Of a stretch of 64,000 nucleotides of DNA, positions 893 through 63,863 are shown one piece after another (positions within the stretch are counted from its first letter, which is position 1; each line of letters begins with the position of its first letter). Made by a program: the position numbers and the translations under genes. Location: the IMG/VR virus record IMGVR_UViG_3300025129_000005, one strand, 5' to 3'. The notes beneath the pieces are model-generated. The model saw only the letters and a list, made by a program, of their open reading frames with translations, made no database searches and was not told the DNA's origin. This DNA comes from a virus (taxonomy: Duplodnaviria; Caudoviricetes).

Positions 893-922
893 ATATTTAT
901 CGTTGGCATTTAGCGGAGAGGA

Positions 923-1201: not shown

Positions 1202-1203
1202 GT

Positions 1204-2226: not shown

Positions 2227-2228
2227 TC

Positions 2229-3065: not shown

Positions 3066-3078
3066 AAGAGATCATAAA

Positions 3079-3716: not shown

Positions 3717-3724
3717 GAGATGAA

Positions 3725-4036: not shown

Positions 4037-4110
4037 TATTATGTATTTGTTGGTGACGAAACCCCCTTAAGAAAGGAAAAATATGGTCGCCAAGAATTTC
4101 GAAAAAAATT

Positions 4111-4467: not shown

Positions 4468-4479
4468 AATATTAACCTA

Positions 4480-4956
4480 GTGAGGAGTAAAATGGATTAC
4501 GAATTAATATATGAAAAAAAGAAAAAACGAGACTTGGCATTAAAAGAAAAATATCCCAAAATTCTAAAAAATCTTGGTGGTAATGCAAGAGAAACTTGTA
4601 TGTCATGGGTTCATGATGGTATTTCTGTAAATGATGGATGGTTACCTTTGCTCGATAAATTAATGCATTGCCTTCAATTTCACCATGATAAAAATGGGTA
4701 TCCACAAGTCGTTGCTGACCAGATCAAAGAAAAATTCGGAACACTACGTTTTTACTATCATACAGAAGAAAATGATACTAATCATCCCTATAAAGGGGAA
4801 ACAAGAAGTTCTGATTACCTAAGTGGTATTATTAGTTTTGCAGAATCTATGTCTTCTATGATTTGTGAGAATTGTGGTGACCACGGAGAAATAACCAGAA
4901 ACGGATGGATTAAAGTTCGTTGTAAAAATTGTACAGATAACAAAGAAAAGGAGTAA
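4480..4956 (+). CDS. Conserved phage hypothetical protein with C-terminal Zn finger
   Basis: GWLPLL, QIKEKFGTLRFYY and CENCG...RCKNC motifs. Confidence 0.7.
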   Translation: MRSKMDYELIYEKKKKRDLALKEKYPKILKNLGGNARETCMSWVHDGISVNDGWLPLLDKLMHCLQFHHDKNGYPQVVADQIKEKFGTLRFYYHTEENDTNHPYKGETRSSDYLSGIISFAESMSSMICENCGDHGEITRNGWIKVRCKNCTDNKEKE

Positions 4957-24145: not shown

Positions 24146-24174
24146 AGATGATCGTTTGGAGAGAAAAAAAAATA

Positions 24175-33415: not shown

Positions 33416-33435
33416 TATTATCTCCTTGAAAATAA

Positions 33436-35097
33436 TTAATAATAATCTATCCTTGGTATATGGAGAGGTTTTGGTTGAACTTGGACATAATAAACGTTAC
33501 CGAATCTATTCACCGAACCACCATCGTATACATAGGGAAAATATAGAGAAGATCCTTTTAACACACCATCATAGATAAAAGGTTCTAATATTGACCACGA
33601 ATCTTTTAACCTTATATTATAATAATCTATAGACTCAATTAAAAATGTTTCACTAACAGCGCCCTCATATTGACCTTGATACAACATACCTATATTATCA
33701 CTTTGTGTTATATTATTATTATGTAAAATGTTACCCTGATCAGATGTTAGAATAGTGTCATCCGTAAGACCATCACGGGTTAATATTCCATAATACCGTT
33801 TCATCCCAGAGAAATCAAATCCCTTTATATCATGATATGGTTGTATTGTTCCACTATTATACACATCGATAGCTGTTATAAGATCATGAGTAGCTTCATA
33901 TGCTCCGGTATTCGAGATAAACTGCCCTGCTTTATAAAAGCGATCTTTAGTTGAAACGATAGTTCTTCCTGAAAAAGTTAAAGTTTCGGTAAGTCTACCA
34001 TTTCTGGGAATAATACTATCAATTTTACCATCAACATCCAAACATCCAACGAATCTGACCTTATTATCATAATTATACAATTTACACTTTATACCTCTAC
34101 ACCCAATTAAGGATAAGTTTGTACCATCATCAATAAAAAAATTTTCATCAAAGATGCAATTAATAAAAGTTGAATTTCCATAACATACGATATCTTCAAA
34201 ATAACAATCAAAGAATTTACCTCTTGATATATAAGGGGATAGATCCTCAGAAAGAGTATTGAAATTTCTGATAGTACTACCAGAACCCATACCATCATAA
34301 CAAAAGTTGATAGAACCACCCGTGAGAGGCAAATAACCACCTGTGACATCAACATTATCTATTTTATATGCAACGGGACATGATACATTCCAGTCGTTAC
34401 TTCTGTTATCATGATTGATAAAATCTCGTCTACCAGAATCATAGGTATCAATTAATTCTGGATGATCCGCATATAAGTGGATGTTAGAAAGTTCTAGTTT
34501 GAATTCTTTGGTTATAAAGAAATAGTCATAATTGATGATATCTTCGCAGTCATTATGACCATCAATTACAAGGTAACTACCATCAGCGGATATCTCCCTT
34601 ATCCTGAAATATTGTGAATAAGTGAGTGATATATAACTTCCGACTTGTATACAAGGTCTTGTTTCTGATAACAAAATCCAATCAAAATTGTTTGCATAAA
34701 CTTTGTTATCACCAAGTGAACAAGATATAAATCTTTCTTTTATTGCGCCACTTGGTGGGTTTGTGTTATAATCATAACCGTTATCAAAATCTTCCGTAAA
34801 ATAAGGAATTATATTATACATAATATTACCATTAGTATATATCAACTTTGTCGTTGATTTACTCTCACCATGTATTCTAAGGGGTATATCACCTTGAACT
34901 GACAAGTCATAACGCATACTATCTGTCATGACATGATCACCTGTGGTTAAAAATAAGTTATAATGACCATCATTAAATGCATCTGTAACCGACACATAAT
35001 CACCGTCACCATTCACATCAACAATCGTCCAATCACCATACATTGGATGAAGTGTTGTTTTTTTATATTTTGTATATAAGTTATTTAATTGTGTCAT
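33436..35097 (-). CDS. Beta-helix-like virion/receptor-binding paralog 2
   Basis: Same architecture; VDVNGDGDYVSVTDA. Confidence 0.6.
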   Translation of the reverse strand: MTQLNNLYTKYKKTTLHPMYGDWTIVDVNGDGDYVSVTDAFNDGHYNLFLTTGDHVMTDSMRYDLSVQGDIPLRIHGESKSTTKLIYTNGNIMYNIIPYFTEDFDNGYDYNTNPPSGAIKERFISCSLGDNKVYANNFDWILLSETRPCIQVGSYISLTYSQYFRIREISADGSYLVIDGHNDCEDIINYDYFFITKEFKLELSNIHLYADHPELIDTYDSGRRDFINHDNRSNDWNVSCPVAYKIDNVDVTGGYLPLTGGSINFCYDGMGSGSTIRNFNTLSEDLSPYISRGKFFDCYFEDIVCYGNSTFINCIFDENFFIDDGTNLSLIGCRGIKCKLYNYDNKVRFVGCLDVDGKIDSIIPRNGRLTETLTFSGRTIVSTKDRFYKAGQFISNTGAYEATHDLITAIDVYNSGTIQPYHDIKGFDFSGMKRYYGILTRDGLTDDTILTSDQGNILHNNNITQSDNIGMLYQGQYEGAVSETFLIESIDYYNIRLKDSWSILEPFIYDGVLKGSSLYFPYVYDGGSVNRFGNVYYVQVQPKPLHIPRIDYY

Positions 35098-36803
35098 TAC
35101 GTTCTCCTACTTTCATGTGAATGATTGATCATAAACTTAACCAAAACCTTGAAATATTGTCTCTTATCTGAGCTTGAACATAAAAGGTATAATATGGATT
35201 ATATACAGGGTTATACACATAAGGGAAGTATATAGATCTATTATTAATAAATTTACCCTCATATAAATAGGGGCTTAATATTGTCCATGAATTATTTAAC
35301 CTCATTTCTTGGTTAGGATCTAAATCACTAGTGTCAATAATAAATGATGTAGTTGTTTGTCCAGATGAAACAAGCCACACAGATAAATTATCGGATAACA
35401 ATACTTCATTATTAAAAAGAACATTATCAGTACCAAAATTAAAAATGGTATGGTCAGTAACACCATCTTGAGTGAATGTACCATAATAACGTTTTATTTT
35501 ACTGAAATCTAATTGATTATATTGATATTCATATCTAACACCTGTTGGTGTATATATTACTTCAACAGAAGTTATCATATCTTCATTACTTTCGTATGCA
35601 CGGTATAGGGATTTGAAATTATCAACAAAAACAAATTTATCTGCGACAGTCGCACCATTGGTACCAGTAAAAACAAGCAATTCAGTTTTCCTGCCCTGTG
35701 AGGGCATTACATCTTCAACATCACCGTTCACATCTCTACATCCTATTACTCTAGACGTGGAAGTAATATTAAGTATTCTGCTGTTAAGTAAACTACAACC
35801 TATAAGTGTACACCTATCAGACATATACAAATCATCACTGTCATCTATAACACAGTTTATTAGTGTAGAGTTATTATAAAGCTCAATTTCATCAAAATAA
35901 CAGTTTGTTGCTGACAACCCCGGTAGATATAATCGCCCTTTTGATAATGTATTAAAATTATTGACAGTTGAAATGCTCCCAACTCCATCATAAGAAAACC
36001 TGATAACGTCCCCGTTACCCGTATTGCCACCATAAAAATCAACGCATTTAATATCACATGATATTCCTGCTCCTACACACCAACTATTCGTTGCAATACC
36101 ATTTAAACTCCCACTCGGGAATATAATAAATTCGGTATTGTATTCCTCAAACGTATCAATTACTGACGCATCAGCAAATATAGTAATATTTTCAAGATTT
36201 AGTTTGATCTCTTTGGATATAATCCAATAAGTTTGATTAATAAAATCACCTGAAATATTATGCCTGTTTAGTACAATAAATGCACCAGCAGGATCAATTG
36301 AAATTATTTCATAAAACTCATTATTATTCAATACTATACAATCACCGACATTAATACTATATTTTGAGGGATAAGCTGTTGCCAGAGTATTCCAATTAAA
36401 ATTATCCGCGTAAACTTTATCAGAACCATTTATAACTGTTATACTATTTACCGATTCATAATAATCCGGCGTTTCCAATGAGTAATCATAATTTGAAGTA
36501 TATCCGGTTTGTGTATAAGGTACAAGTTGATGCATAACATTTGCAGTATTCAATATAAGTCTTGTTGTCGCTTTAGTTACTCCATGAATTCGTAATGGAA
36601 TGTTACCCATAGTATCAAGGTCGTAATATATACTTTCAGTTAAATAATGATCACCTTCTTGTAGAAATAAATCATATTTACCATCATTAAATGCATCTGT
36701 AACCGACACATAATCACCGTCACCATTCACATCAACAATCGTCCAATCACCATACATTGGATGAAGTGTTGTTTTTTTATATTTTGTATATAAGTTATTT
36801 AAT
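34966..36803. repeat. 124-bp identical direct repeat (34966-35089 and 36680-36803)
   Basis: Identical DNA encoding the N-termini of paralogs 2 and 3. Confidence 0.85.
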
Positions 36804-36811
36804 CGGGCCAT
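35129..36811 (-). CDS. Beta-helix-like virion/receptor-binding paralog 3
   Basis: Same architecture; CATAAATA late-promoter variant near 36853-36860. Confidence 0.6.
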   Translation of the reverse strand: MARLNNLYTKYKKTTLHPMYGDWTIVDVNGDGDYVSVTDAFNDGKYDLFLQEGDHYLTESIYYDLDTMGNIPLRIHGVTKATTRLILNTANVMHQLVPYTQTGYTSNYDYSLETPDYYESVNSITVINGSDKVYADNFNWNTLATAYPSKYSINVGDCIVLNNNEFYEIISIDPAGAFIVLNRHNISGDFINQTYWIISKEIKLNLENITIFADASVIDTFEEYNTEFIIFPSGSLNGIATNSWCVGAGISCDIKCVDFYGGNTGNGDVIRFSYDGVGSISTVNNFNTLSKGRLYLPGLSATNCYFDEIELYNNSTLINCVIDDSDDLYMSDRCTLIGCSLLNSRILNITSTSRVIGCRDVNGDVEDVMPSQGRKTELLVFTGTNGATVADKFVFVDNFKSLYRAYESNEDMITSVEVIYTPTGVRYEYQYNQLDFSKIKRYYGTFTQDGVTDHTIFNFGTDNVLFNNEVLLSDNLSVWLVSSGQTTTSFIIDTSDLDPNQEMRLNNSWTILSPYLYEGKFINNRSIYFPYVYNPVYNPYYTFYVQAQIRDNISRFWLSL

Positions 36812-49780: not shown

Positions 49781-50298
49781 TGGCTATTAGGGTAATCATG
49801 AGAAAGAATTTCCAGAATGTCGCATGGCGTTCTGGTCATATCTATAAATTTAAATATCAGGCATGGTCGAATGATCCAGAACCTGTGATAATTCTAATGT
49901 ATGCGTTGAGTGGTACACATCCTAACACTGGTCATGAGTGGAGATTTTTTCAGGGAATAAATTTCACTTATATAGATAGGTCTCATCGCAGACAATTTGC
50001 AAAGTCATGGGTCAGGGAATGGGAAACTACAGGTGGAAGTTTTCAGTTCACCTATGAGAGGGTGAAGAGACAATATCCCTATCTACAGACGGCGGTTAGG
50101 AGGTATTTCTTTAGCCCTGCTTATTATATACAAAACCCTATAGAAGTGCCATTAGAGGATATAGAAAGTGTCATTGTTAGTACATGGTCTAAAGATTTTA
50201 GTAAAAAATTAAGAACCAATCTTGTTCAAAAGTTTAAAGGGGCAAAACAAAGAATTGCACAGGGGTTGGAGACAGGTATATTCAAATCAAGACGATGA
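49780..50298 (+). CDS. DNA end protector, T4 gp2-like
   Basis: GHIYKFKY...P......GINFTYI...R...YERVK...AVRRY; adjacent to gp4-like as in T4-like phages. Confidence 0.6.
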   Translation: MAIRVIMRKNFQNVAWRSGHIYKFKYQAWSNDPEPVIILMYALSGTHPNTGHEWRFFQGINFTYIDRSHRRQFAKSWVREWETTGGSFQFTYERVKRQYPYLQTAVRRYFFSPAYYIQNPIEVPLEDIESVIVSTWSKDFSKKLRTNLVQKFKGAKQRIAQGLETGIFKSRR

Positions 50299-50528
50299 AA
50301 TATGTAAAGTTAAACTTGACATTTGGGGATAAACTTAAAATGTTGTTATTTGGTTTGGTGCCAGAGGACAAACTCCCCGTCAAAGAAGTCGTCCGTGAAG
50401 ATATTGTCGAAAATGAGATTCGGCGTGTATATAATGACCATAAAGAAGTTATAAATACAAAAGATGATGAGAAATTTCATGTTCCATTTTTTGAGTTACA
50501 AGACGATGACGTGAAGAGTAATTTCTAA
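50295..50528 (+). CDS. Hypothetical protein
   Basis: ATGA overlap; VPFFEL motif. Confidence 0.6.
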   Translation: MKYVKLNLTFGDKLKMLLFGLVPEDKLPVKEVVREDIVENEIRRVYNDHKEVINTKDDEKFHVPFFELQDDDVKSNF

Positions 50529-50537
50529 GGAGTTTTT

Positions 50538-50975
50538 ATGAAAATAGATGAAGTTATAGATAGATATTTGGTGGAAATGGATATTGATAAAGTACTTAAA
50601 TCTTTGTTTGATGGTAAAACTAAAAGAAAAGCTTTAATAAAAAAATCTAGTTTTATTGATAAACTATTAGGTATTTTTGTCGATGTTAATTCAATTGATG
50701 GTGAACTTGGATTGAATGCCGACGCTATGCGAGATGTGTTAGATAGTGAAGGTTTCACTGATGAGGAAATAAAAGCCATAAGAGAAGTTGTTATTAAAGC
50801 ATCTAAGACTGTATCACGTTATATTGCGAACAAATATAAAATGAAGGTGTCAGAAATACCATCAAATTTTGGTGTTTATACTGTAGTTAATATGTCCCTT
50901 TCTGATAGTAAAATGGAGAAAGAATTTAACGATCTATTAAAGAAACAGGTATATCAAAGATTGAATAAGATATAA
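50538..50975 (+). CDS. Leader-bearing hypothetical protein
   Basis: AAGGAG RBS; MKIDEVIDRYLVE. Confidence 0.6.
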   Translation: MKIDEVIDRYLVEMDIDKVLKSLFDGKTKRKALIKKSSFIDKLLGIFVDVNSIDGELGLNADAMRDVLDSEGFTDEEIKAIREVVIKASKTVSRYIANKYKMKVSEIPSNFGVYTVVNMSLSDSKMEKEFNDLLKKQVYQRLNKI

Positions 50976-51045
50976 GAGCAATTTCTAAGGTGTAAATATG
51001 TATGATATCGACAATATGATATTTCAGGATAAGGAGAAAATAGAA

Positions 51046-52113
51046 ATGAGTGATACACAAACTGTTACCGAAAAAAGAACCGTTGTGAAAAGTGAAACTA
51101 AGGCTAAGAAAAACAAGCCGGGTATTGGATTAGATGTTGGTACAGGGTTTCTTGTTGGCGCGGGTTATGATGGAGCAAAAGTAAAATTCGCACCTCTCAG
51201 GGACGCATTTTATACTTTAGATAAAGATACATTTAATCGTTCAATGTTTGATAAGGGTAGTATGAAATATATAGAAATAGGTGGTAGTGTTCATGTTATT
51301 GGTGAGGATGCGTTAACTCTTGCCAAGATTAGAAATACTTCTGCCTCTCGTCCTTTGAGTGAAGGTGTAATTAACCCTAAAGAAAGGAATGCTGCACCTA
51401 TTTTAAAAGAAATGTTCAGATATTGTGTACAACCATTCATAAATCGAGAAGGAGAGACAATAGTTTTTTCTGTGCCTGCACAAAAGATTGGTGATGAAGG
51501 ATTTAACGTTGATTATCACTCTATGTCTATACAGTCATTGGCAAAAACCTTTGGACTTAATGCGGTACCTTTAAACGAAGCGTATGCTGTAATTCTTTCT
51601 GAGATGGAAAGTACTGATGATGTTACTGGATTAGGGTTTTCTTTCGGCGCAGGTTTAGTAAATGTGTGTTTTGTGTATAAATCTATGTTGTTGTTTGAAT
51701 TCAGCATAGGAAAATCAGGTGATTTTATTGATACAGAATCAGCAAAAGCGTGTGGAATTTCCACTTCTGTAATAAATCATATTAAAGAGAAGGAATTAGT
51801 TTTGACAGCTGATGAATTTTCTGCCTCTCCTGAAATTAGAGCGTTGATTTTTACTTATAGATACGTGATTAAGAATACCCTAAAAGAGGTACTCAGAGCA
51901 TTTACTACAACAAGTGATATTAATGTTATTGATCCAATTCCGATTGTTATTTCAGGTGGAACGAGTATTCCAGAGGGGTTTATTGATTTATTTCAAGAAG
52001 AGCTTAAAAACGTTAACTTGCCGTTCAAGGTAACAGAAGTTATCCCGGCTAAAAATAGGTTGGCGGCGGTTGCGCATGGCTGTTTGATCTGGGCGAACCA
52101 CCTAGAAAAATAA
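51046..52113 (+). CDS. Actin-like ATPase
   Basis: GLDVGTG (phosphate 1), LNEAYAV (connect 1), GFSFGAG (phosphate 2), ISGGTS (adenosine), AVAHG (connect 2); AAGGAG RBS before 51046. Confidence 0.8.
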   Translation: MSDTQTVTEKRTVVKSETKAKKNKPGIGLDVGTGFLVGAGYDGAKVKFAPLRDAFYTLDKDTFNRSMFDKGSMKYIEIGGSVHVIGEDALTLAKIRNTSASRPLSEGVINPKERNAAPILKEMFRYCVQPFINREGETIVFSVPAQKIGDEGFNVDYHSMSIQSLAKTFGLNAVPLNEAYAVILSEMESTDDVTGLGFSFGAGLVNVCFVYKSMLLFEFSIGKSGDFIDTESAKACGISTSVINHIKEKELVLTADEFSASPEIRALIFTYRYVIKNTLKEVLRAFTTTSDINVIDPIPIVISGGTSIPEGFIDLFQEELKNVNLPFKVTEVIPAKNRLAAVAHGCLIWANHLEK

Positions 52114-52126
52114 GAGAGAGGTAGTT

Positions 52127-52495
52127 ATGTCAGATGACAAAACGCCCATTCATTCCGAAGGCTGGAAGCAATGGTCAATGCAGGTAAAAGAGTCCCTTGA
52201 AAAATTAGAGAAGAAAGTAGAATTGTTAGAGGGTCGTACTACAAAACACAGAGAAGAATTTTTAGTTGAAACAACTACGCTAAAGGTTAAAGCTGGTGTT
52301 GTAGGTACGGTTGCAGGTATTATAGCATCTTTGGTGACTACTATTATGGGGGGTTTTATTGTATACCAGTTAACTACCGCTAGACATAGTAGCCCCCCTG
52401 AAACCTACAAACATCCATCACAGACAGAGCAGCCAGTCGGTATGATATCCCCTAGCTCACTAAATATTTTGAATATAAAGGGGGATATTAGCTAA
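52127..52495 (+). CDS. Coiled-coil plus single-TM protein (holin-like)
   Basis: ESLEKLEKKVELLE then hydrophobic AGVVGTVAGIIASLVTTIMGGFIVY. Confidence 0.45.
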   Translation: MSDDKTPIHSEGWKQWSMQVKESLEKLEKKVELLEGRTTKHREEFLVETTTLKVKAGVVGTVAGIIASLVTTIMGGFIVYQLTTARHSSPPETYKHPSQTEQPVGMISPSSLNILNIKGDIS

Positions 52496-53622
52496 TGGGG
52501 TGGATTGATAATTTATCGAGACGTATCGGCGAAAGAAAGGTTAAATCAATGATAGAAAAGGAACATCAGGAAACTCCTATGCCAGATATCAAAAAAGATC
52601 TTGATGACCTTGAAGAGTTGAGATTACAGTTGGTAAAAAAAGACGAGGAACTCGAAAAAACTCGCCTCGAATGGGATCGGACTTTTGATTCAATCATCGA
52701 TAACATAGTATTAATTGACAGGGATATGTGTATAACAAAGGCTAACAATTCTTTCCATGATTGCATGGAAAGAGAGGTTGGTCATATAGAATATCTGGGT
52801 ATGAGATGGTCTGATTTTAGAAGCATTTCGGGTATACCAAGTGACGTATGTCCTGTAGAAAGATGCTTTGAAACCGGAGTTCATCAAGAAGCAACTATTC
52901 CGATTCGAGGTAAAATAGTGGCTGTCACGGTTAATCCTATATATATTAACACAACAATGGGTAAAGAGATACTTGGTGTCGTTCGTGTATCAAGAGATAT
53001 AACCTCTGTGGAGAAGATTAAAACCACATTAGAGAGACGATCTACTATATACCACGCTATATCAGAAATGAGTAAAATATTAGTTAATCATAGGAATTGG
53101 AGTTCTGCTGTTAATTTGATCCTTGGTGATCTCGGTAGAGCAATAGGTGCTAGCAGGGTATATATTTTTAAAAATGAAATAAGGGGTGATTGTATCTGTT
53201 CAATCCGACAGAGTGTTTTTCATAACAAACAAAGGGATTATTGTGATTCTGGTGATTTAACTGATTGTATTAATTATGATTTATTACCGGAATGGCGTTC
53301 TAAAATGGAACATGGTTTGTCTGTTGAGGGGAGTATCATAGATTGTGATTTGTGTCCCAATAAACATGCATGTAAATGCTCGGATGAGGTCTTGGTTTGC
53401 GCTGTCCCTGTTTTTGTTGATGGTAGCTGGTGGGGTTTTATTGGATTTGACTATCAGAACGGAACACGTATTTGGAAGGACGAGGATGCCACTTTGTTAC
53501 GAATTGCGGCAGATATCCTTGGTGGCGTCATTTATCACCGCAGTAGATATTTTGATGCTTTGAATGCTTTGAATGGTTTGGAAGATTGTGTAGATGAACT
53601 GGTTCATGAAAGGGAATTATAG
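52495..53622 (+). CDS. PAS-GAF sensor-like protein lacking an output domain
   Basis: EWDRTFDSIIDNIVLIDRD..ITKAN (PAS); LGRAIGASRVYIF...AVPVFVDGSWWGFIGFD...W...D..LL (GAF); ends at ELVHER. Confidence 0.8.
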   Translation: MGWIDNLSRRIGERKVKSMIEKEHQETPMPDIKKDLDDLEELRLQLVKKDEELEKTRLEWDRTFDSIIDNIVLIDRDMCITKANNSFHDCMEREVGHIEYLGMRWSDFRSISGIPSDVCPVERCFETGVHQEATIPIRGKIVAVTVNPIYINTTMGKEILGVVRVSRDITSVEKIKTTLERRSTIYHAISEMSKILVNHRNWSSAVNLILGDLGRAIGASRVYIFKNEIRGDCICSIRQSVFHNKQRDYCDSGDLTDCINYDLLPEWRSKMEHGLSVEGSIIDCDLCPNKHACKCSDEVLVCAVPVFVDGSWWGFIGFDYQNGTRIWKDEDATLLRIAADILGGVIYHRSRYFDALNALNGLEDCVDELVHEREL

Positions 53623-53625
53623 GTT

Positions 53626-55071
53626 ATGGCGGTAACAGTAAATACCAGTAATTATTCACTATTAAGTAACTGTGATTCATTAACCAGTGGTGGGACGTGG
53701 ACTGGCGGTAATGCCAGAACCATTGAAACAGATTTTTATAAATTTGATGGTGGTGGTGGTACACCCGCGTGTATCGCTTATACAATAAGAACTATCTCAA
53801 ACTATCAGCTGAATTTTTCACCAACGACCTCCGTTAATTTAACAGTAGGATCTCCTATTATACGATTGTGGTTCTTGTCGTCTCAACAATTTGCTTCTCA
53901 AGCATTAGGTGGTATTAGATTTTATATAACCAATGGTGTAAACACAGCGTACTGGAATGTATTAGGAGGGGACACGTACCCCGGTGGTTGGTATATGATT
54001 GCTGTTGACACTGACACAACACAAACCAGCGGAACAAAACCTACCATGACATCCATCACCGGGATCGGTTTGGATATCACGACAACAGCCGCTTCAAAGA
54101 ATATTCCCACTACATATATAGATCATTTGCATAGGTTGGATAGTTTGATTACATATGGTGATGTTGGAGGTGTAAGCCCGTATGGTATAGAAGAGGTATA
54201 TCAGGCACAGAATACAACCACAACAGCATATGGTGTAATAAGAAAGGTTAACTCTGTTTATTTCCTCGCAGGTTCTTATGGTATAGGTGATGCCACTGGT
54301 GCAAACAATACGGATTACGCTGATAGTGATGAAGTTATCATATATGACGGATCGCCTATGGCCGATGGTAAATTCAATATAATCGTGGTTGAGGGAACCG
54401 GTGTAACCGATGCATCATTTAACCAATGTGTTATAAAAGCATCAGGAAATCCTTTTGATTTTAATGGTACGGACACTGGTGTACCTATATCACTAACTGG
54501 TAACAGTTTCATTAATTGTCGATTGCCTGAGTTTTCCTCTGATGATACTGTAACAAGCAATAATTTTATTGGTTGTAATGCAGTATATCCATATTCAAGT
54601 ACTTTTGAGAATAATACAATTTCTGCCAGTATTGAGACTGTCACGGGATCGTTATATATAGATTCTACATCAACGGCAACTAATTGTGTTAATTTAACAT
54701 TTAATACTTATAGTGGAAAATATGCGGTTTATATTCCGGCAACGGTAACGGGATCTATAACATTTGATAATTGGCAGTTTGATGGTAGCGGTACGGATGC
54801 TTATTCAGGGAACATGCTTGATGCTGCTAAACCTTCAACTGGTGTGTTTGGTATGACCTCTCAGGCAAATACCATGTATACTACATTGATGAAAGATGGT
54901 TATGTTCAACTTGATCTTAGAGAACACTTTGAACGTAATACAGAATTGATGTATAGAAAGGCAGAGTTAGACGACGAGCCGGACAATTGGGCTATACGAG
55001 TTAAAACATTTAATGATGCGGATACAGCACAGCTGGCATTTGCTATTTCGTGGTTGGAAATTAGAGCCTAA
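53626..55071 (+). CDS. Putative virion structural protein
   Basis: Thr/Gly/Asn-rich beta protein in late cluster with beta-helix-like middle (NSFINC, NNFIGC). Confidence 0.6.
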   Translation: MAVTVNTSNYSLLSNCDSLTSGGTWTGGNARTIETDFYKFDGGGGTPACIAYTIRTISNYQLNFSPTTSVNLTVGSPIIRLWFLSSQQFASQALGGIRFYITNGVNTAYWNVLGGDTYPGGWYMIAVDTDTTQTSGTKPTMTSITGIGLDITTTAASKNIPTTYIDHLHRLDSLITYGDVGGVSPYGIEEVYQAQNTTTTAYGVIRKVNSVYFLAGSYGIGDATGANNTDYADSDEVIIYDGSPMADGKFNIIVVEGTGVTDASFNQCVIKASGNPFDFNGTDTGVPISLTGNSFINCRLPEFSSDDTVTSNNFIGCNAVYPYSSTFENNTISASIETVTGSLYIDSTSTATNCVNLTFNTYSGKYAVYIPATVTGSITFDNWQFDGSGTDAYSGNMLDAAKPSTGVFGMTSQANTMYTTLMKDGYVQLDLREHFERNTELMYRKAELDDEPDNWAIRVKTFNDADTAQLAFAISWLEIRA

Positions 55072-55904
55072 TGTTACAGAGTATTGCTTGGGGTAACCAA
55101 TGGGATTACTGGAAATACTTTGATGGTGAAGTTGATGACCATAGAGTCATGTTTGATGGTCCCACAAAAACTATTTGGATACTTGAAGGAATTTCTGAGA
55201 TCTTTGTTAAAGAACATCTTTATTCTGATTGGAAAGAGTGGATTTCTTTATACGATCATACCAAGTACCCACAAGCATTTGAAACAGAGGGCGGTAGACC
55301 CATTTCTGCAACAGAACGATTAGGTGATTCCTATCTCTTGATCAACGATTGGACTATTAGACAAAGAGATTCAAGAACTACGGTTAATGTCATAGGAAAC
55401 CTATATGCATATGATTCTAATAACGAGGCAAAAGATCCATACGGTGTTGATCCATATGGAGGTAGGAGTATCACATCAAAGGTTTCCAGTATAGTGAATA
55501 CCATATCACCTGATGTTAGTGGTATAGTAATAGATTACAATCAGGTTGCTTCTGCTGTTTGGAATGCGATGAAAATATCACATACGTCCAATGGCACGAT
55601 GGGACAACAAATGTCCAACATCCCCACAACGCAGCAAATTGTTAATGGTGTTTGGGATGAGAGCGCAACTAATCACAGGGGCGTTGGAAGTATTGGTGAA
55701 CAACAATATTTAACACATGAAGAATCAAAACGATCCAGACAGATGGCAACCAACAATGTTGAGATATCAAGGATTGGTTCTGGTGTATCACAAGTTGATA
55801 TGATTAATGTTTATGATGATGACGGTATAACTCTATTATACACTATTAAAGTAACAGGTGAGGATGCTGACAACAGAGAAGTCACTTACACTAAACCGTA
55901 TTAA
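55071..55904 (+). CDS. Putative virion structural protein
   Basis: TAATG coupling; FDGPTKTI...LYSDWKEW; IASAVWN/IVNGVWDE repeats. Confidence 0.6.
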   Translation: MLQSIAWGNQWDYWKYFDGEVDDHRVMFDGPTKTIWILEGISEIFVKEHLYSDWKEWISLYDHTKYPQAFETEGGRPISATERLGDSYLLINDWTIRQRDSRTTVNVIGNLYAYDSNNEAKDPYGVDPYGGRSITSKVSSIVNTISPDVSGIVIDYNQVASAVWNAMKISHTSNGTMGQQMSNIPTTQQIVNGVWDESATNHRGVGSIGEQQYLTHEESKRSRQMATNNVEISRIGSGVSQVDMINVYDDDGITLLYTIKVTGEDADNREVTYTKPY

Positions 55905-55916
55905 GGGGATTTATTA

Positions 55917-56174
55917 ATGGGCGTATATCCAATGTGGATGAATAGAAGGGGCTGTAAACCCATTACTATCGAAATCCCTGTCCCCGGTAACGGCGGTAGT
56001 GGAGGTGGCGGTAGTGGAGGTGGCGGTAGTGGAGGTGGCGGTGGTGCAGTTATACCAATAAAACAACCACTCCCTAAAGTAAGGATTAAGAAAGTCATCG
56101 TAATGGATGAGTATGAACATATGAATGTAACGGTATTACAGGTAATTGACCTGTCATTGAATGGAGGAATATAA
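55917..56174 (+). CDS. Small protein with Gly-Ser linker
   Basis: 15-bp repeat GGCGGTAGTGGAGGT x3 encoding GGSGG. Confidence 0.6.
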   Translation: MGVYPMWMNRRGCKPITIEIPVPGNGGSGGGGSGGGGSGGGGGAVIPIKQPLPKVRIKKVIVMDEYEHMNVTVLQVIDLSLNGGI

Positions 56175-56665
56175 TGTTAACGTTTGAAAAGAGGAAGACA
56201 AAGAAATTGTCCATGCCTGTTCTCGTTGAAGGTATTGATCAATCATTCCTTAGATTCAAGTTTGTTATTGAATCAAATGGAGTAGAATATGCCTTCCCTG
56301 CAGAGAGAGGTGGTGATAGCGTAAACTTCATCATCCCGCCTTTGGATACAGTTATTAGAGATATTGAGGATGGTACCTATAATGCCAAACTCGAAGTTTC
56401 TGCTATCACAGAGGGTGACAGAGGATTTTTTATGCAGCCATGGGGCGAGCAGATCAGGGTTAAGAATTCGGTTATGGTTAAACTTGAAGACCCGGTAGTG
56501 GAAGAGGATAAAATCGAAGAGGCTCCTTCCGAAAAGGTCAAACTTAAGATTACCAGTATATTTACAGAAGAAGATATTAGCACTCCAGTTAAAGAGGAAT
56601 GTGACGACGATAATAATAATGAAAAGAAAAAGAAAAATGACAAAATGAGAAAGAAATTTCTCTAA
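56174..56665 (+). CDS. Hypothetical late protein
   Basis: TAATG coupling; Ig-like beta pattern then acidic tail. Confidence 0.6.
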   Translation: MLTFEKRKTKKLSMPVLVEGIDQSFLRFKFVIESNGVEYAFPAERGGDSVNFIIPPLDTVIRDIEDGTYNAKLEVSAITEGDRGFFMQPWGEQIRVKNSVMVKLEDPVVEEDKIEEAPSEKVKLKITSIFTEEDISTPVKEECDDDNNNEKKKKNDKMRKKFL

Positions 56666-56734
56666 TAAAGTTTACATATATGGTAAAAATTGCTATCATA
56701 TGATTAAATTAAATAATTTGTGGAGGTTTGTAAT

Positions 56735-57115: not shown

Positions 57116-57143
57116 AGGGATGCCTGATGGTATCCTTTTTTTT
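57116..57143 (+). terminator. Intrinsic terminator
   Basis: GGATGCC-TGAT-GGTATCC followed by a long T run. Confidence 0.75.
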
Positions 57144-57290: not shown

Positions 57291-60200
57291 ATGGCTGATA
57301 CATTATATAAGTTTTACGTAAGAAACACAACAGATGATGGTTGGGTTAATATCCTAACAGAAGATAACATAAGTGTTGTCGATTCTAATAATATATTTTT
57401 GGGTAATAGATTAGATGAGGTTCTATATGAACTTAACACAAAATTAGAAAGCATTGATGGTGGTGGACCTGGATGGGATGGAAGTCCTGTACATATCATA
57501 GAAACAGGAAATACATCAGGTTTTAATGATAACACTGCTTCCTTCTCAACAGAAGGGGGCGCTACTATATTTTTGGATGCTAACATTGGCGGTAATCTCG
57601 GAGTTCAAGGAACATCATCTTTTAGTGGTGATATGACCCTTGTAGGATCTGATATTAATATCGGTGGTGATATATTTTCTGTTGTGAACATTTCAGGTGA
57701 TGGCACTGGTGACATTGATGGATTTGTTAATGCAACAGTAACTGGTACTATAGAAGGTAATGTCCTTATTGTAACAGGAACCGTAAAATCCGATCTCATT
57801 CCCGATGAGACTGATATGTATGACCTTGGTTCTAGTGGGGTGGTATGGAATAACATCTACGCTGCAATATATAACGGTGATCTTAAAGGTAATATTCGTA
57901 ACGGAAACGATACAATAATTCTTACTGTTGGTGATGATCTTACTCCTGCTGAATTCATAGGTAATGTTACAGGTAGTGTAACCGGCGATTTGATAGGTAA
58001 TGTCACAGGTGATGTTACTGGTAGTATTTTAAATACTGACCTGACTGTGATCCTTGATTCTGGTGATGATTTGATTCCTGCCATATTTACAGGTAACGTT
58101 ACCGGCGATTTGACCGGTAACGTTACCGGAAACATTATTGGTGATGTGACCGGTGATCTTACAGGAAATATACTATCCGATGGTGGTCAGTTAGTTATAA
58201 ACAATGGTACCGATGGTACGGATGCATTCTTTATCGGCGCTTTAACAGGAAATGTTACAGGTGATGTAACAGGTGATGTAACAGGTGACACTTTTGGTTT
58301 TCATACAGGTGATGTTACAGGTGATGTTACAGGTGATACTTTTGGTCTTCACACAGGTAACGTTATCGGTGATGTAACTGGTGACACTAACGGTCTCCAT
58401 ACTGGTAACGTGAGTGGTTATATTCTAGCATCAAATAATATTTCTGTAATTCTTGATAACGGTACCAATGGAACCGATGCTACATTTTATGGTGACGTAA
58501 CCGGTAATGTAACCGGTGACCTTACTGGTGACATTTTTAATGTTGACGATACTTTAATTTTCACCTCTGGTAGCAACGGGGTTCCTGCAGAATTTATTGG
58601 TAATGTAACAGGTGATTTAACTGGTGACACTAACGGTCTTCATACAGGAAATGTTACAGGTGATGTAACAGGTGATACTTTTGGTCTTCACACAGGTAAC
58701 GTTATCGGTGATGTAACTGGTGACACCAGTGGTCTTCATACTGGCGATGTTATTGGTAATGTGGATGGTAATCTCGAAGGTGATGTAACTGGTAACACTA
58801 ACGGTCTTCATACAGGTAATGTTATAGGAGATGTCACTGGTGATGTCACTGGTAACACTAACGGTCTCCATACCGGTAATGTTATAGGAGATGTTTTTTC
58901 CTCAGATGGTATTAATAAGATATTAGATAACGGTACCAATGGAACCGATGCCACCTTTGTGGGAACAACCACAGGTTATCATAATGGTAATGTGACAGGA
59001 AATGTAGTTGCGTCCGATGCCCCCTATCCTATTATTCTCAATAACGGAACAGATGGGACAGATGCAACTTTTCAGGGCGATGTATTAAATTCCGATTCAT
59101 CAATAGTTGTGAATGTTGGCTCTAATGCAATTCCAGCCGAATTTACCGGTAATTTAATAGGTAATGTTAATGGAAATACAGTAGGCGTCCATACAGGAGA
59201 ATCAAATGGTCTTCATACAGGTGATGTCACTGGTGATGTAACAGGTGATACTTTTGGTATCCATACAGGTAACGTTGTTGGTAACGTATCAGGTGACACC
59301 AGTGGTCTCCATACCGGGAACGTTGTTGGTAATGTAACAGGTGCAACTAACGGTCTTCATACCGGTAATGTTGTTGGTAATGTGACAGGTAACCTCGAAG
59401 GTGACGTAACCGGAGATTTAACTGGTGATACTTTTGGTACTCATACTGGTAGTGTTTTTGGTGATGTTACAGGTAACCTTAGCGGGGACACTGTCGGTAC
59501 GCATACCGGTAGTGTTATAGGTAATGTATCTGGAAATTTGACGGGTAATGTTACTGGTGATCTTGACGGTAATGTATTGAATGAAGATCTCACCATAATC
59601 CTTTCTTCTGGTTCTGATGTAACTCCTGCGGTGTTCGTTGGTAATGTGACAGGGAACGTGACAGGAACGTTAAATGGAAACTCAAACGGTCTTCATACAG
59701 GTAATGTCACTGGTGATGTAACTGGTGATACTTTTGGTATCCATACAGGTGATGTCGTTGGTAATCTCACTGGAGCATCAAATGGTCTTCATACTGGCGA
59801 CGTTATTGGTAACACTAATGGTCTTCATACAGGTAATGTTGTTGGTAATGTAACAGGTAATACTACTGGTAATATTCTTTCTGATAACGGCTTGGTGACA
59901 ATACTTAGTAACGGAGTATCACCTGATGGTGCTGATGCTATCTTTGTTGGTAGTGTAAACGGTAATGTAACAGGTAATACCTCGGGTATACATACAGGAA
60001 AAGTGGTAGGCGACCTTGACGGTAATGTATTAAACGAAGATCTCACCATAATTCTTTCTTCTGGTTCTGATGTAACTCCTGCAATTTTTGTTGGTAATGT
60101 TACAGGGAACGTGACCGGTGATCTTGATGGTGATGTAAACGGTAACGTTACAGGCAACACTTTTGGTATACATACCGGAGATGTTACAGGTAACGTAACT

Positions 60201-63200
60201 GGTGATACTTTCGGTTCACATACAGGCTCGACCAATGGTCTTCACACAGGTAATGTCGTTGGTAATGTAACAGGTGACACCACAGGAACACACATAGGAC
60301 CTGTTACCGGAGATGTTACAGGTAATCTTGTTGCGGCTATGACAACTGCCCATGATATGTCGGTTAGTGACATAGATGCTGTTAGTGTAACAACAGGTTC
60401 ACTCTCAACCTCATCTGTTAATTCAAGTTTCATCCCTTCAAGTCCTTTTAACTTGGGTTCAGCTGTTAATTCTTGGGGTGATTTACATATTAGTAGAATA
60501 TTAGGTGCTGTTAATATAGAATCGACCGTTGCCACAATTGGAACATTAAACGTATCTTCGATTAGCGGCGCAACTCTGACAGGATCATTTATAGGAAATT
60601 TAACAGGTGACGTTGATGCTGATATGGTTACAGCAAACACTTTGACAGGAAATTTCAATGGTAATATTGAGGGTGATACGACTCAGGTGACTTCTGGATG
60701 GGATCTGGTTAACGGAGTGGGATCAGCTAATGCGTTTGATGTTGTCGGTGGAGTTAGTATCGGAAAAAATTTAACAGTATCAGAAAGTGTTATGGTTGGT
60801 GGGGGTGTTACTGTAACAGGTGACGTTTTAGCGAATAATCTAGACTTTGCTAATTTCAACTCAGATATCATACCTGTCACTGATGATACATACAATTTAG
60901 GGTCTCCTACTCATAGATGGTCAAGCGTAAACGCGAATCAAATAACTGTTGATACCTTAGCGTTTAGCTTACTGTCCGGTGATATCATGGGTGACGTTCA
61001 ATCTGGGAATGGTGATATCGTTCTTGATAACGGGGTTGACGGAACCGATGCAACTTTTCAGGGTGATATAATTTCTCCTGATGGGACGACAATCTTTAGT
61101 AACGGTGATCTTATTGATGGTTCTGATTCTTTATTAACAAGTAATGTAATAGGTAATGTAACAGGGGGTATTACGGCAACTTCACTGAATGTTACTGGTA
61201 ATATCACATCAAATATTATACCGAATGTTACAAACACCTATACATTAGGTGACAATACCCATAGATGGGCTAATGTATATACCGGAACAATAACATCAGG
61301 GACAATTATTTCTACAAGCATCATAGGTACTGTTATTGGCGATTTAACTGGTGATTTGATTGCTATAACAACAAATGCTGTTAATATAACAACAACAGGT
61401 GATATTAATGTTGGTGGGACGTTAACATCTGATATTATTATAACACCACAACTTGACGGTAATATCAAGGGTAATATTTTAAATTCTGATGATGTTTTCA
61501 TTTTTAACAGTGGCGGTAATGGAAATGATGCTGAGTATACAGGCAACGTAACCGGTGATATAAGGTCTGGTAACGGTGTTGTTATATTAGATAACGGGTC
61601 TGATGGTACTGATGCAGTTTTTGTAGGTAATCTAACAAAGACAACAGGTGTTAGTGTTACGAGTGTATCAAACTCAGTGGATCAATATACAGGCGCTCTT
61701 AGGGTTGCTGGTGGTATTTCACTGGAAAAAGATATATGGATTGGAGGAACTGCACACGTTCTTGGTTCATTCATACTCTCAGGTGCATTCAGTGTCCCTT
61801 ATGCCACGATAGTTCAGGCTGAAATTACAAGTACAGCATCATCATTTGATAAAAATACAGGGGCTTTGGTTCTTACACACGGAGGTCTTGGTGTTGAAGA
61901 AAATGCCAACATAGGCGGTTACGTCACTATAGGCGAAACTCTCGATGTCATTGGTTCTACATATCTTCACAGCACGTTAAGAGTTGACGGTTCTGTTGAT
62001 ATAAACAATTACATTGACATAGATATAACTGGCGCTCCGGGTGACGCATTTTCACTTAACACTGATGGTTCTGTTACATTCGTTAACAATTCGTTTGATA
62101 TAGACAGTAACGATGTGATTGGTATTGATACAGACACAACCCTTACACTAACAGGTACAACTAATCTCGATATAAATGGTGGAGATGTAACTTTTGACAG
62201 CACTGGAACTATGGTTATAGGTTCTATAGGGTCAACTACTATAACATCGGGTGATACTTACAGTATAACCGCAGATAATCAACTTAACATCACAAGTACA
62301 GTTGGAGATTTGTGGTTGTATTCTGGTGACAATTTTAAAGTGGTAGGCTATAACACACTTAATATTGAAAGTCCTGTCTCAACCATCGGATTAAATAATA
62401 CTCAACTTCTTAACATAACTTCCAAGGTTAATAGTAATATTATACCAAGCGGTACAAATACGTTAGATATTGGTGGTGTTGGAGAAGCTTGGAGAGATTT
62501 TTATGTTAACAGAGTATTAGTTGAAGGTGGTAACACAACAACTAATAACAACACAGGAGACGTTATTGTTATCGGTGGTATTGCGACCCAGAATAATTTA
62601 TGGGTTGATGGTAACACTGATATCATTGGAACACTTGATGTTGTAAGTAATACAACTATTGGTGGAACACTTGATGTTGTAAGTAATACAACTATTGGTG
62701 GAACACTTGATATATCTGGCATCACAACCATAACAAATACAACACAATCAGTAGATGTTGCTACAGGTGCGTTGGTTGTTGATGGTGGTGTGGGTATAGC
62801 GAAAAATGTATTCATAGGTGGTAATATAGAAGCCGGTGATATTACGGCACATATAAGTTTTCATGGTCAATTAATCGGAAATGTCATTGGTAATGTTACA
62901 GGAACTCTTGATGGTGATCTTCTCAACATGGTGACACATGGTGTTGCAATGGAGCTTGCTGATTATTTAGCTGTTGGTACATCACTAAGTGTTAATGGTA
63001 TCTCAACACTAAATGATGATCTTTATGTTGATGGTAATACAACAGTTACCGGTAATTTAGATGTTATTGGTGATCTTATTGTTCAGGGAACTCAGACAAT
63101 AATTAACACCGAAACTATAACTTTACAAGATAATATGATCATCTTAAATAATGGTCAAACTGGTATTCCATCTACATCACTGGTATCAGGATTTGAAGTT

Positions 63201-63863
63201 AATCGTGGAACAGAAGATAATTATAGATTTATGTTCCGTGAAACTGATGACACTTTCCGTGTTGGTGCCGGGTTCTTATCAATAGAAGTTTCGCCGGGTG
63301 AAGGGGCTTTATTCCAAGTTGGTGAATTGGTAACAGATATAACCACAGGTGCTTCTGGTACTGTAATATTAATTACAGGTGATATTCTTGATATTAATAA
63401 AACAGCCAATACAGCTGATTTTGTAAACGGAAACACTATTGATAGTGCAAGTGTAGGAGCATCATCAACTATAGTATCAGTTATATATGGTGATCAAACA
63501 CAAGCTGTTGCGACAAGAGAGGATGTACCTCTTGATACTGGTATTGCGACATGGGATTCATCACAACAAATGTTTGTCGCCCTTTTATGGGAAACAGCGA
63601 CTGATGCAATGGAGTTGATTCTTGGTCGTAAATATATTGTTGATGATTCAGTTTCCACGTTAACATTACCTGCATCACCGTCAGAGGTCGGGCAAATTGT
63701 GACATTAAAAGACCTTGATGGTGTTTGGTTTTCTAACCCGGTAACACTAGGATCAAATGGTAACAACATTATGGGATCTGTACAAGATATAATTCTTAAT
63801 GTCACAGGTGATACCCTTGAATTAGTGTGGTCTGGTAATGTTCAGGGATGGATAATTTTATAA
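57291..63863 (+). CDS. Long tail fibre protein (2190 aa)
   Basis: Extensive G(D/N)VT/GLHT tetrapeptide repeats; C-terminal LTLPASP..GQ.V...D..G.W..NPVT...WII domain like T4 long-fibre repeats. Confidence 0.8.
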   Translation: MADTLYKFYVRNTTDDGWVNILTEDNISVVDSNNIFLGNRLDEVLYELNTKLESIDGGGPGWDGSPVHIIETGNTSGFNDNTASFSTEGGATIFLDANIGGNLGVQGTSSFSGDMTLVGSDINIGGDIFSVVNISGDGTGDIDGFVNATVTGTIEGNVLIVTGTVKSDLIPDETDMYDLGSSGVVWNNIYAAIYNGDLKGNIRNGNDTIILTVGDDLTPAEFIGNVTGSVTGDLIGNVTGDVTGSILNTDLTVILDSGDDLIPAIFTGNVTGDLTGNVTGNIIGDVTGDLTGNILSDGGQLVINNGTDGTDAFFIGALTGNVTGDVTGDVTGDTFGFHTGDVTGDVTGDTFGLHTGNVIGDVTGDTNGLHTGNVSGYILASNNISVILDNGTNGTDATFYGDVTGNVTGDLTGDIFNVDDTLIFTSGSNGVPAEFIGNVTGDLTGDTNGLHTGNVTGDVTGDTFGLHTGNVIGDVTGDTSGLHTGDVIGNVDGNLEGDVTGNTNGLHTGNVIGDVTGDVTGNTNGLHTGNVIGDVFSSDGINKILDNGTNGTDATFVGTTTGYHNGNVTGNVVASDAPYPIILNNGTDGTDATFQGDVLNSDSSIVVNVGSNAIPAEFTGNLIGNVNGNTVGVHTGESNGLHTGDVTGDVTGDTFGIHTGNVVGNVSGDTSGLHTGNVVGNVTGATNGLHTGNVVGNVTGNLEGDVTGDLTGDTFGTHTGSVFGDVTGNLSGDTVGTHTGSVIGNVSGNLTGNVTGDLDGNVLNEDLTIILSSGSDVTPAVFVGNVTGNVTGTLNGNSNGLHTGNVTGDVTGDTFGIHTGDVVGNLTGASNGLHTGDVIGNTNGLHTGNVVGNVTGNTTGNILSDNGLVTILSNGVSPDGADAIFVGSVNGNVTGNTSGIHTGKVVGDLDGNVLNEDLTIILSSGSDVTPAIFVGNVTGNVTGDLDGDVNGNVTGNTFGIHTGDVTGNVTGDTFGSHTGSTNGLHTGNVVGNVTGDTTGTHIGPVTGDVTGNLVAAMTTAHDMSVSDIDAVSVTTGSLSTSSVNSSFIPSSPFNLGSAVNSWGDLHISRILGAVNIESTVATIGTLNVSSISGATLTGSFIGNLTGDVDADMVTANTLTGNFNGNIEGDTTQVTSGWDLVNGVGSANAFDVVGGVSIGKNLTVSESVMVGGGVTVTGDVLANNLDFANFNSDIIPVTDDTYNLGSPTHRWSSVNANQITVDTLAFSLLSGDIMGDVQSGNGDIVLDNGVDGTDATFQGDIISPDGTTIFSNGDLIDGSDSLLTSNVIGNVTGGITATSLNVTGNITSNIIPNVTNTYTLGDNTHRWANVYTGTITSGTIISTSIIGTVIGDLTGDLIAITTNAVNITTTGDINVGGTLTSDIIITPQLDGNIKGNILNSDDVFIFNSGGNGNDAEYTGNVTGDIRSGNGVVILDNGSDGTDAVFVGNLTKTTGVSVTSVSNSVDQYTGALRVAGGISLEKDIWIGGTAHVLGSFILSGAFSVPYATIVQAEITSTASSFDKNTGALVLTHGGLGVEENANIGGYVTIGETLDVIGSTYLHSTLRVDGSVDINNYIDIDITGAPGDAFSLNTDGSVTFVNNSFDIDSNDVIGIDTDTTLTLTGTTNLDINGGDVTFDSTGTMVIGSIGSTTITSGDTYSITADNQLNITSTVGDLWLYSGDNFKVVGYNTLNIESPVSTIGLNNTQLLNITSKVNSNIIPSGTNTLDIGGVGEAWRDFYVNRVLVEGGNTTTNNNTGDVIVIGGIATQNNLWVDGNTDIIGTLDVVSNTTIGGTLDVVSNTTIGGTLDISGITTITNTTQSVDVATGALVVDGGVGIAKNVFIGGNIEAGDITAHISFHGQLIGNVIGNVTGTLDGDLLNMVTHGVAMELADYLAVGTSLSVNGISTLNDDLYVDGNTTVTGNLDVIGDLIVQGTQTIINTETITLQDNMIILNNGQTGIPSTSLVSGFEVNRGTEDNYRFMFRETDDTFRVGAGFLSIEVSPGEGALFQVGELVTDITTGASGTVILITGDILDINKTANTADFVNGNTIDSASVGASSTIVSVIYGDQTQAVATREDVPLDTGIATWDSSQQMFVALLWETATDAMELILGRKYIVDDSVSTLTLPASPSEVGQIVTLKDLDGVWFSNPVTLGSNGNNIMGSVQDIILNVTGDTLELVWSGNVQGWIIL

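Follow-up and report, generated by a model that had tools for sequence, protein, structure and literature searches.

What can a sensory protein do for a phage if it has no domain through which to report what it senses? The question is raised by positions 52127–53622 of a 64,000-nucleotide stretch of DNA from an uncultured T4-like giant phage (IMG/VR record IMGVR_UViG_3300025129_000005; the whole stretch is hereafter the window). The interval spans two genes on the + strand. The upstream member of the pair (52127–52495) encodes a 122-residue single-pass transmembrane (TM) protein, and the downstream member (52495–53622) encodes a 375-residue coiled-coil/PAS/GAF protein that lacks an output domain. 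An initial annotation of the locus proposed a host-derived sensor, translationally coupled to a holin-like gene and repurposed as a redox- or metal-sensing timer of lysis or assembly, or else a decoy of host histidine kinases. We consider the chances evenly balanced that the pair forms a membrane-tethered redox or metal sensor, which acts by protein contact and gates a late, membrane-linked step according to the state of the host. PAS and GAF domains are ordinary, and viral PAS and GAF proteins are already known. What is new is the stand-alone, output-less form, a family-specific cysteine cluster in the GAF pocket, an obligatory coupling to a predicted tail-anchored partner, and a place at late-promoter motifs in virulent T4-like phages.

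Architecture of the PAS–GAF protein

The structure of the 375-residue protein was predicted with AlphaFold2 (AF2) from an alignment of 27 sequences, with a mean predicted local distance difference test (pLDDT) score of 81. The model comprises a helix (residues 3–24), a long helix (32–66), a PAS domain (67–170), a linker helix (170–198), a GAF domain (199–330) and a terminal helix (329–374). The long helix (52588–52692) is the N-terminal coiled coil and leads into the PAS N-cap (EWDRTFDSI); L39, L42, W60, D61, T63, F64 and D65 of this region are invariant in the family alignment. The PAS domain (52693–53004) is delimited by a match to Pfam PAS_4 (residues 64–172), by the modelled strands and by conservation. 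Its sheet has the five strands of a PAS fold (residues 70–75, 79–83, 131–137, 140–153 and 156–168), with helices within residues 85–127. The domain carries conserved cysteines C119 and C124 at the F-alpha helix and ends in a DIT motif (SRDIT, residues 166–170); R164 and R167 are invariant. The GAF domain (53089–53484), which bears a WWGFIGFDY signature, matches Pfam GAF, and approximately 400 cellular GAF domains align with it. It is followed by the C-terminal helix (residues 331–375; 53485–53619), where additional PAS/GAF or kinase domains follow in the cellular relatives. Conservation within the family ends at approximately residue 352.

The initial annotation described an output-less coiled-coil/PAS/GAF architecture, which is upheld by Pfam matches in relatives, by the AF2 model and by Foldseek, with one terminal helix and no output domain. 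Precomputed matches to PF01590, PF08448 or PF13426 are present in many family members (PF01590 in more than 20). In Foldseek, the AF2 model matches DosP and many phytochrome PAS–GAF structures with a probability of 1.00; a sequence search against solved structures returned no match at E ≤ 0.01. No dimerization and histidine-phosphotransfer (DHp)/H-box (HisKA) or HATPase_c match was detected in Pfam at E ≤ 0.1, and the protein ends approximately 45 residues past the GAF domain. No kinase, cyclase or DNA-binding domain was detected in its 375 residues. Because an output domain is lacking, any signal is probably passed on by protein contact.

Family and cellular origin

A word-indexed search recovered 37 clusters of relatives besides that of the window (38 in total), which are 35–71% identical and approximately 330–383 residues long. 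An exhaustive HMMER search of 1.84 billion representatives returned the same family together with two fragments (154 and 180 residues). It also returned 6914 matches at E ≤ 1e-3, made up of GAF and PAS–GAF modules of cellular kinases; 1225 proteins reach E ≤ 1e-10, mostly through residues ~160–350. Next after the phage family come giant multi-PAS/GAF proteins of 600–3600 residues (22–35% identity, again mostly through residues 160–350), and several cellular proteins align over the whole coiled-coil/PAS/GAF unit (query residues ~31–357). Seven cellular relatives were scanned for domains: three are HisKA_3/HATPase_c kinases, one is a PAS-GAF-PAS-TrmB/MarR regulator, and three contain PAS and GAF domains only.

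The alignment over the whole unit supports descent from cellular sensor kinases, specifically from their input modules, in line with the host-derived sensor supposed in the initial annotation. The cellular multi-sensor kinases and PAS-GAF-PAS-TrmB/MarR proteins, which belong to a 'WGFIGFDDC' GAF subfamily, share with the phage protein the coiled-coil/PAS/linker/GAF unit and the signature WWGFIGFD..R.W..E..LL..AA. In contrast to these modules, to which it is 23–35% identical, the phage protein has no kinase or helix-turn-helix output, has lost the cysteine of the GFDDC motif and has gained six cysteines in the GAF domain; its gene has a membrane partner gene and a late-promoter setting. The descent is not recent. 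Apart from the two fragments, every close relative is approximately 330–383 residues long, which points to an old stand-alone family, and a recent truncation of a kinase was rejected on the same ground. Neither the word-indexed nor the exhaustive search found an intact kinase among the close relatives.

A survey of representative genomes from 185,579 prokaryote species gave best matches of 23–35% identity, the top one (~35%) covering the GAF domain only; they come from Chloroflexota, Acidobacteriota, Desulfobacterota, methanogens, WOR-3 and other groups. Since these matches are distant and scattered across phyla, they single out no host, neither the Desulfobacterota-like one tentatively suggested in the initial annotation nor any other, and an inference from the nearest cellular GAF domains was rejected. 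The same survey bears on a dominant-negative role, in which the coiled coils of the phage protein would pair it with PAS/GAF histidine kinases of the host in mixed dimers. This role is favoured by the ancestry of the protein, which goes back to input modules of such kinases, and by the dimerising helices that it retains. However, no cellular protein in these genomes exceeds ~35% identity, the phage family is old and diverse, and a decoy leaves the obligatory membrane partner and late expression unexplained; we regard it as highly improbable.

Among viruses, fold matches in BFVD include a histidine kinase of an uncultured Caudovirales phage, a multi-sensor kinase of Agrobacterium phage Atu_ph07, and short proteins annotated as 'PAS domain' or 'GAF domain', evidence that sensor folds of both kinds do occur in phages; these are matches of fold only, at 9–17% identity. 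No relative of the PAS–GAF protein was found by tblastn against 50,697 GenBank phage records, and full-text literature searches turned up no description of this gene pair or family. To our knowledge, no other virus-encoded PAS/GAF protein has this cysteine cluster or a coupled TM partner.

A cysteine cluster in the GAF pocket

The window protein contains 14 cysteines (3.7% of residues, against a mean of 1.15% for the 65 open reading frames (ORFs) of the window). Eight are conserved in at least 33 of the 38 clusters: two in the PAS domain (C119 in 33 and C124 in 38) and six in the GAF domain (C235 in 34, C250 in 36, C258 in 34, C284 in 35, C287 in 38 and C293 in 37). C295 (26 clusters), C302 (21) and C90 (28) are partly conserved, and the C-terminal helix carries an LE-x-CE-D motif whose cysteine is present in 20 of the 38. 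The cysteine-rich part of the GAF domain, as defined by family conservation (53191–53400), is composed of C235, C250, C258, C284-x2-C287-x5-C293-x-C295 and C302. All three clusters singled out as unusual in the initial annotation are present, with most of their cysteines conserved; the exception is C233, the first cysteine of DCICS, which is conserved in 1 of the 38 clusters.

For comparison, the family profile was used to align approximately 400 GAF domains from 143 cellular homologues. Columns 284, 293 and 302 of the cellular domains are occupied mainly by L, F or M, and columns 250, 258, 287 and 295 by mixed residues, cysteine not being among the common ones. The phage family has another residue in place of the signature cysteine of the cellular subfamily (GFDDC, 264 of 398 domains). 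As cysteine is rare in these cellular columns, the GAF set is best explained as having arisen within the phage family. The phage cysteines fall between the two β-hairpins, in the segment where ligands are bound in GAF domains. The two cysteine-rich loops are low-confidence parts of the metal-free AF2 model (pLDDT 57–67).

The spacing C284-x2-C287-x5-C293 is the same as that of Cys-20, Cys-23 and Cys-29 of FNR, which together with Cys-122 ligate a [4Fe-4S] cluster (PMC4601167); C250, C258 or C295 would be candidates for the fourth ligand. The fold is that of a GAF domain, so the phage protein is at most a functional analogue of FNR and not a member of its family, and its sequence is not homologous to those of FNR, SoxR and Wbl. 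Iron–sulfur (Fe–S) clusters inside PAS sensors have been documented in OrpR (PMC8359166) and NreB (PMC13478379), and redox sensors built from PAS and GAF domains include MsmS and RdmS (PMC6944256). Given the FNR-like spacing and these precedents, our best guess is a putative metal or Fe–S redox site in the GAF domain. NreB and OrpR carry their clusters in PAS domains, whereas the proposed phage site would lie in a GAF pocket, for which no precedent was found in the literature. A haem-regulatory Cys-Pro motif was considered and rejected: C119-P and C287-P are present, but the proline is not conserved (~60% at position 288 and rare at 120).

Two readings without redox sensing bear on the same residues. 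In the first, the cysteines bind zinc in a protein that senses nothing and keeps its PAS and GAF folds as a scaffold or chaperone, perhaps in the service of adjacent fibre or hub genes. Zinc-binding sites commonly show CxxC...CxC patterns as well, the gene sits in a structural module shortly before a giant fibre gene, and the matching slot in cyanophage Syn9 is occupied by gp26-like and gp51-like hub genes. However, the cysteines sit at positions where cellular GAF domains are mostly hydrophobic and do not make up a knuckle of their own, the DIT motif that joins PAS to the linker and the helical connectors are conserved, and the gene is accessory and fast-evolving, which together make this explanation improbable. 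In the second, the GAF domain sequesters a cyclic-nucleotide immune signal as an anti-defence sponge. Some GAF domains bind cyclic nucleoside monophosphates (cNMPs), and sponges likewise lack an output domain. Against this, the GAF pocket is filled with cysteines, and reading the 27-sequence alignment revealed no conserved cNMP-binding motif of the NKFDE type, the relevant loops being cysteine-rich instead. A late-promoter setting and a membrane partner are also ill-suited to an early-acting sponge, which is the least probable of the explanations considered here.

The membrane partner and a second sensor pairing

The N-terminal region of the TM protein contains an invariant G12-W13..W16 motif and a heptad-like LEKLEKKV sequence, within a heptad helix of residues ~9–55. 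K53-x-K55 stands directly before a Gly-rich TM helix (residues ~56–82, AGVxGxVAGxIxS, with G57, G60, G64 and G76 conserved), which is followed by a variable tail of approximately 40 residues. Hydropathy over 19 residues peaks at 2.03 (residues 61–79), and the AF2 model consists of one continuous helix (9–85) and a disordered tail.

A profile search recovered 259 relatives, approximately 35 of them long forms of 120–131 residues and many more of 70–88 residues. The short forms share the GW..W motif, the heptads and a TLK[VA]KAGVWG motif, and stop right after the TM helix, as in a tail-anchored topology. The N-terminus is probably cytoplasmic, because a signal peptide is lacking, 11 Lys or Arg residues lie within residues 1–55 against 3 in the tail, and the short forms end near the TM helix. 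The number of long forms (~35) agrees with that of the PAS–GAF clusters (37), and the two occur on contigs of matching size.

A second, differently built sensor pairing is found at another phage locus (L166), where a 397-residue, PAS-only, output-less protein ends one base before the ATG of a 78-residue TM homologue (TAAGATG). The N-terminal coiled coil of this PAS-only protein is 43% identical to residues 33–79 of the PAS–GAF family. Judged from sequence, this pairing is the best evidence that the sensor and the membrane protein act together. Because a different output-less PAS protein is coupled here to the same membrane family, the proposed sensor system would be modular. Directly upstream of the PAS-only gene, L166 carries a T4-type portal (gp20) gene (830–4810, + strand), whose 1326-residue product contains intein splicing, Hint and HNH endonuclease domains.

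Coupling, late setting and conservation of the locus

In the window, the stop codon of the TM gene (TAA, 52493–52495) and the start codon of the PAS–GAF gene (ATG, 52495–52497) have one base in common, forming the TAATG overlap (52493–52497, + strand) that the initial annotation had noted. Gene context was read in the window, in 8 independent relatives' loci drawn from viral and metagenome collections, and in a further locus, L226; the family comprises 37 clusters besides that of the window. The coupling is kept in 8 of 8 relatives' loci: the overlap is 1 nucleotide in the window, L005, L006 and L072, and 4 nucleotides in L001, L003, L007 and L008. Gene order is likewise kept in all pair-bearing loci, with a gp4-like head completion gene, a gp2-like DNA end protector gene, the TM gene and the PAS–GAF gene, followed, where the contig continues, by a gene for a 122-residue phrog_1401 protein and a giant fibre gene. 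In the window the fibre-like protein (57291–63863, + strand) has 2190 residues, largely in repeats of the GNVTGDVTGD type, and has its own TATAAATA at 57247; it is conserved with length variation in L003 (1866 residues).

The late region proposed for the pair is borne out by the motif TATAAATA, the consensus of T4 late promoters, which occurs 20 times in the window against 11.8 expected. A copy at 50450–50457 (+ strand) constitutes a putative promoter and heads the operon in the window phage. Downstream of it, no terminator-like site occurs on the + strand before a hairpin at 57116–57137, the likely end of the late transcription unit. The motif lies 68 nucleotides upstream of the TM gene in L001 and 61 nucleotides upstream in L005, which are relatives without an actin insert. 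In the window, L006 and L007 it precedes an inserted volactin-like actin gene (by approximately 90 nucleotides in the latter two), in a block that also has a 77-residue ORF. By analogy with T4, where such motifs act as late promoters, the actin, TM and sensor genes of these three would form one late unit.

The actin homologue of the window (50998–52113, + strand; 371 residues) is a separate accessory cassette, situated between the late promoter and the TM gene. It belongs to the volactin family (PF25216, E = 5.8e-59) and is accompanied by the 77-residue ORF at 50295–50528. Volactin has been described as a cell-shape factor of Haloferax volcanii (PMC10869688). The actin-like protein is 70–89% identical in L006, L007, L072, L225 and L226, and ORFs of two huge uncultured phages (LR756511 and LR745208) resemble it at approximately 30% identity. 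Its gene is present in the window, L006/L224, L007, L072, L225 and L226, and absent from L001, L003, L005 and L008. The gap between the gp2-like and phrog_1401 genes (50298–56720 in the window) is an insertion hot spot, in which relatives carry the actin cassette, the TM/PAS–GAF cassette, both or one. Window ORFs in the hot spot without a family match are located at 50538–50975, 53626–55071 (481 residues), 55071–55904 (277 residues), 55917–56174 and 56174–56665.

The 70-kb contig L226 has the gp4-like, gp2-like, 77-residue, actin-like and phrog_1401 ORFs, with no TM or PAS–GAF gene at the syntenic site or anywhere else on the contig. The pair is accordingly accessory. It also diverges faster than its neighbours: identities among relatives are 37–54% for the TM protein and 42–67% for the PAS–GAF protein, compared with 66–82% for the gp2-like and 70–89% for the actin-like protein.

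Candidates for the controlled late step

If the pair gates a late step, lysis is one candidate. The TM protein would then be a holin with one TM domain or a holin accessory, and the PAS–GAF protein a cytoplasmic, antiholin-like regulator that delays or triggers lysis depending on redox state, a special case of the redox-gate reading. Like holins, the TM protein is small, has at least one TM domain (residues ~56–82, with a Gly-rich helix) and lies downstream of late-promoter motifs. T4 lysis inhibition offers a precedent: a late membrane protein, the holin T, is likewise set by separate regulators that carry a condition, the periplasmic antiholin RI and the cytoplasmic antiholin RIII, the latter binding the cytoplasmic domain of T (PMC11413866). 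In contrast to the T4 system, the sensor here would be cytoplasmic and of PAS–GAF type, and hole formation by the TM protein is hypothetical. A homologue of T was not detected (G001, a 98%-complete relative, lacks PF11031), and RI and RIII were not searched for. The lack of a T-holin family match in G001 counts in favour of a lysis role for the pair; G001 matches neither PF11031 nor T4 lysozyme (PF00959), a result uninformative on the position of its lysis genes. In BFVD, the PAS–GAF model weakly matches proteins annotated as T4-type holin T from Proteus phages phiP4-3 and Stubb and from Serratia phage PS2 (E ~1e-3, probability 1.00). Judging from predicted models, a PAS/GAF-like fold is thus possible for the soluble domain of holin T, which would make a sensor-like fold on a T4-type holin plausible.

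The holin-like label of the initial annotation is nevertheless not borne out. Pfam and PHROGs gave no significant match of the TM protein to holin, XhlA or T-holin families (1 of 14 members against phrog_198, E = 0.079), and no meaningful Pfam family match for members of the TM family. The only consistent match is to phrog_1103, of unknown function, reached by 14 of the 14 members tested (best E = 1.3e-6); matches to the 'hemolysin' PHROGs 1193 and 937 favour a role in lysis and are weak (E ≥ 0.02). An ESM Atlas lead to DUF7201 (PF23831; score 0.91) was dropped, as it was found neither by hmmscan nor in the relatives' genomes. Tblastn of the TM protein and of the short form P0301 against the 50,697 GenBank phage records returned no match. 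No locus has an adjacent endolysin or spanin gene, the neighbours in all loci being gp4-like, gp2-like, actin-like, phrog_1401 and fibre genes, and the short homologues lie outside lysis cassettes, between terminase and portal or beside head–tail adaptors. As the pair is absent from L226, the lineage must have another holin and the TM protein is unlikely to be its only one. We therefore consider a lysis timer unlikely.

The neighbourhoods of the TM family suggest a second special case, in which the family is a membrane factor for the portal, the prohead or head completion and the sensor gates that step. Most short forms in 49 viral loci are flanked by the T4-type large terminase (TerL) and the gp20-type portal. 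The family thus turns up repeatedly in head modules whose layouts are unrelated: the TM gene downstream of gp4-like and gp2-like genes; TerL, TM and portal in most of the 49 loci; the intein-containing portal, the PAS protein and TM in L166; and, in the complete 47.6-kb phage behind L168, the TM homologue between the major head protein and the head–tail adaptors. On viral contigs L172–L214, the 70–88-residue tail-anchored family is abundant between large terminase and portal, among T4-type head genes. Prohead initiation in T4 is membrane-bound and needs the viral chaperone gp40 (PMC9958956). However, gp40, the head vertex assembly chaperone, has no hydrophobic TM segment and is dissimilar to the family (hhalign probability 0.1%), and was rejected as a homologue of the TM protein. 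In the isolated relatives Flavobacterium phage immuto and Microcystis phage Mel-JY01, TerL is directly followed by the portal with no such gene between, and the TM family profile finds nothing in Syn9, immuto or Mel-JY01, where phrog_1103 matches are at chance level only. The pair is also dispensable in L226, and a late-module position may merely reflect a tolerated insertion site. A link to head assembly or packaging is, in our view, decidedly unlikely.

Proposed mechanism

The reading that best accommodates the pair remains a redox or metal sensor tethered to the membrane by its coupled partner. It would be a two-gene accessory cassette in a clade of uncultured T4-like giant phages. The N-terminal helical domain of the TM protein would most likely face the cytoplasm, and its Gly-rich TM helix could self-associate. 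The PAS–GAF protein would be cytoplasmic, derived from the input module of a cellular multi-sensor kinase, with a GAF pocket rebuilt around the six conserved cysteines. Because of these cysteines and the two in the PAS domain, metal-, Fe–S- or thiol-based redox sensing is the most likely mode, with O2, nitric oxide, sulfide or redox potential as possible signals. The likeliest contact of the PAS–GAF protein is its coupled membrane protein. The state of the cysteine site could pass through the conserved DIT motif and linker helices to the terminal helices and alter the hold of the sensor on its TM partner. The candidates for the controlled late step would be lysis timing and membrane-associated head assembly or packaging.

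Several observations weigh against this proposal. The Pfam scores of the window's own protein are below the curated cut-offs (PAS_4, 19.5 bits, E = 0.0012, cut-off 23.1; GAF, 19.3 bits, E = 0.0018, cut-off 22.4). Short TM homologues exist without any sensor, as in the complete phage behind L168, and the TM protein accordingly functions in its own right. Only one pairing of the L166 type is known, no further PAS-only partner having been found in the viral contigs searched, and the conserved cysteines could bind structural zinc. A more specific form of the proposal holds that a GAF-pocket Fe–S or thiol sensor and its tail-anchored partner set the timing of a late event at the membrane, be it lysis or head assembly, through a modular system that differs from T4 lysis inhibition; this form is tentative and, on balance, may well not hold.

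Other features of the window

Outside the locus, the window encodes three tandem paralogous ORFs of 553–561 residues with no PHROG match (31730–36811, − strand), an RtcB-type RNA ligase (24148–25278, + strand; phrog_1075, E = 7e-114), and a RimK-like homologue of 'ribosomal protein S6 glutaminyl transferase' (12388–13914, − strand; phrog_2599, E = 8e-27).

Implications

Virulent phages are usually viewed as running a fixed late programme, the textbook exception being T4 lysis inhibition, which senses superinfection. If the proposed mechanism is correct, some large environmental phages monitor host physiology and tune a late step accordingly. The cysteine cluster of the GAF pocket would then be a cofactor site for which no precedent was found, in a very well studied domain family.

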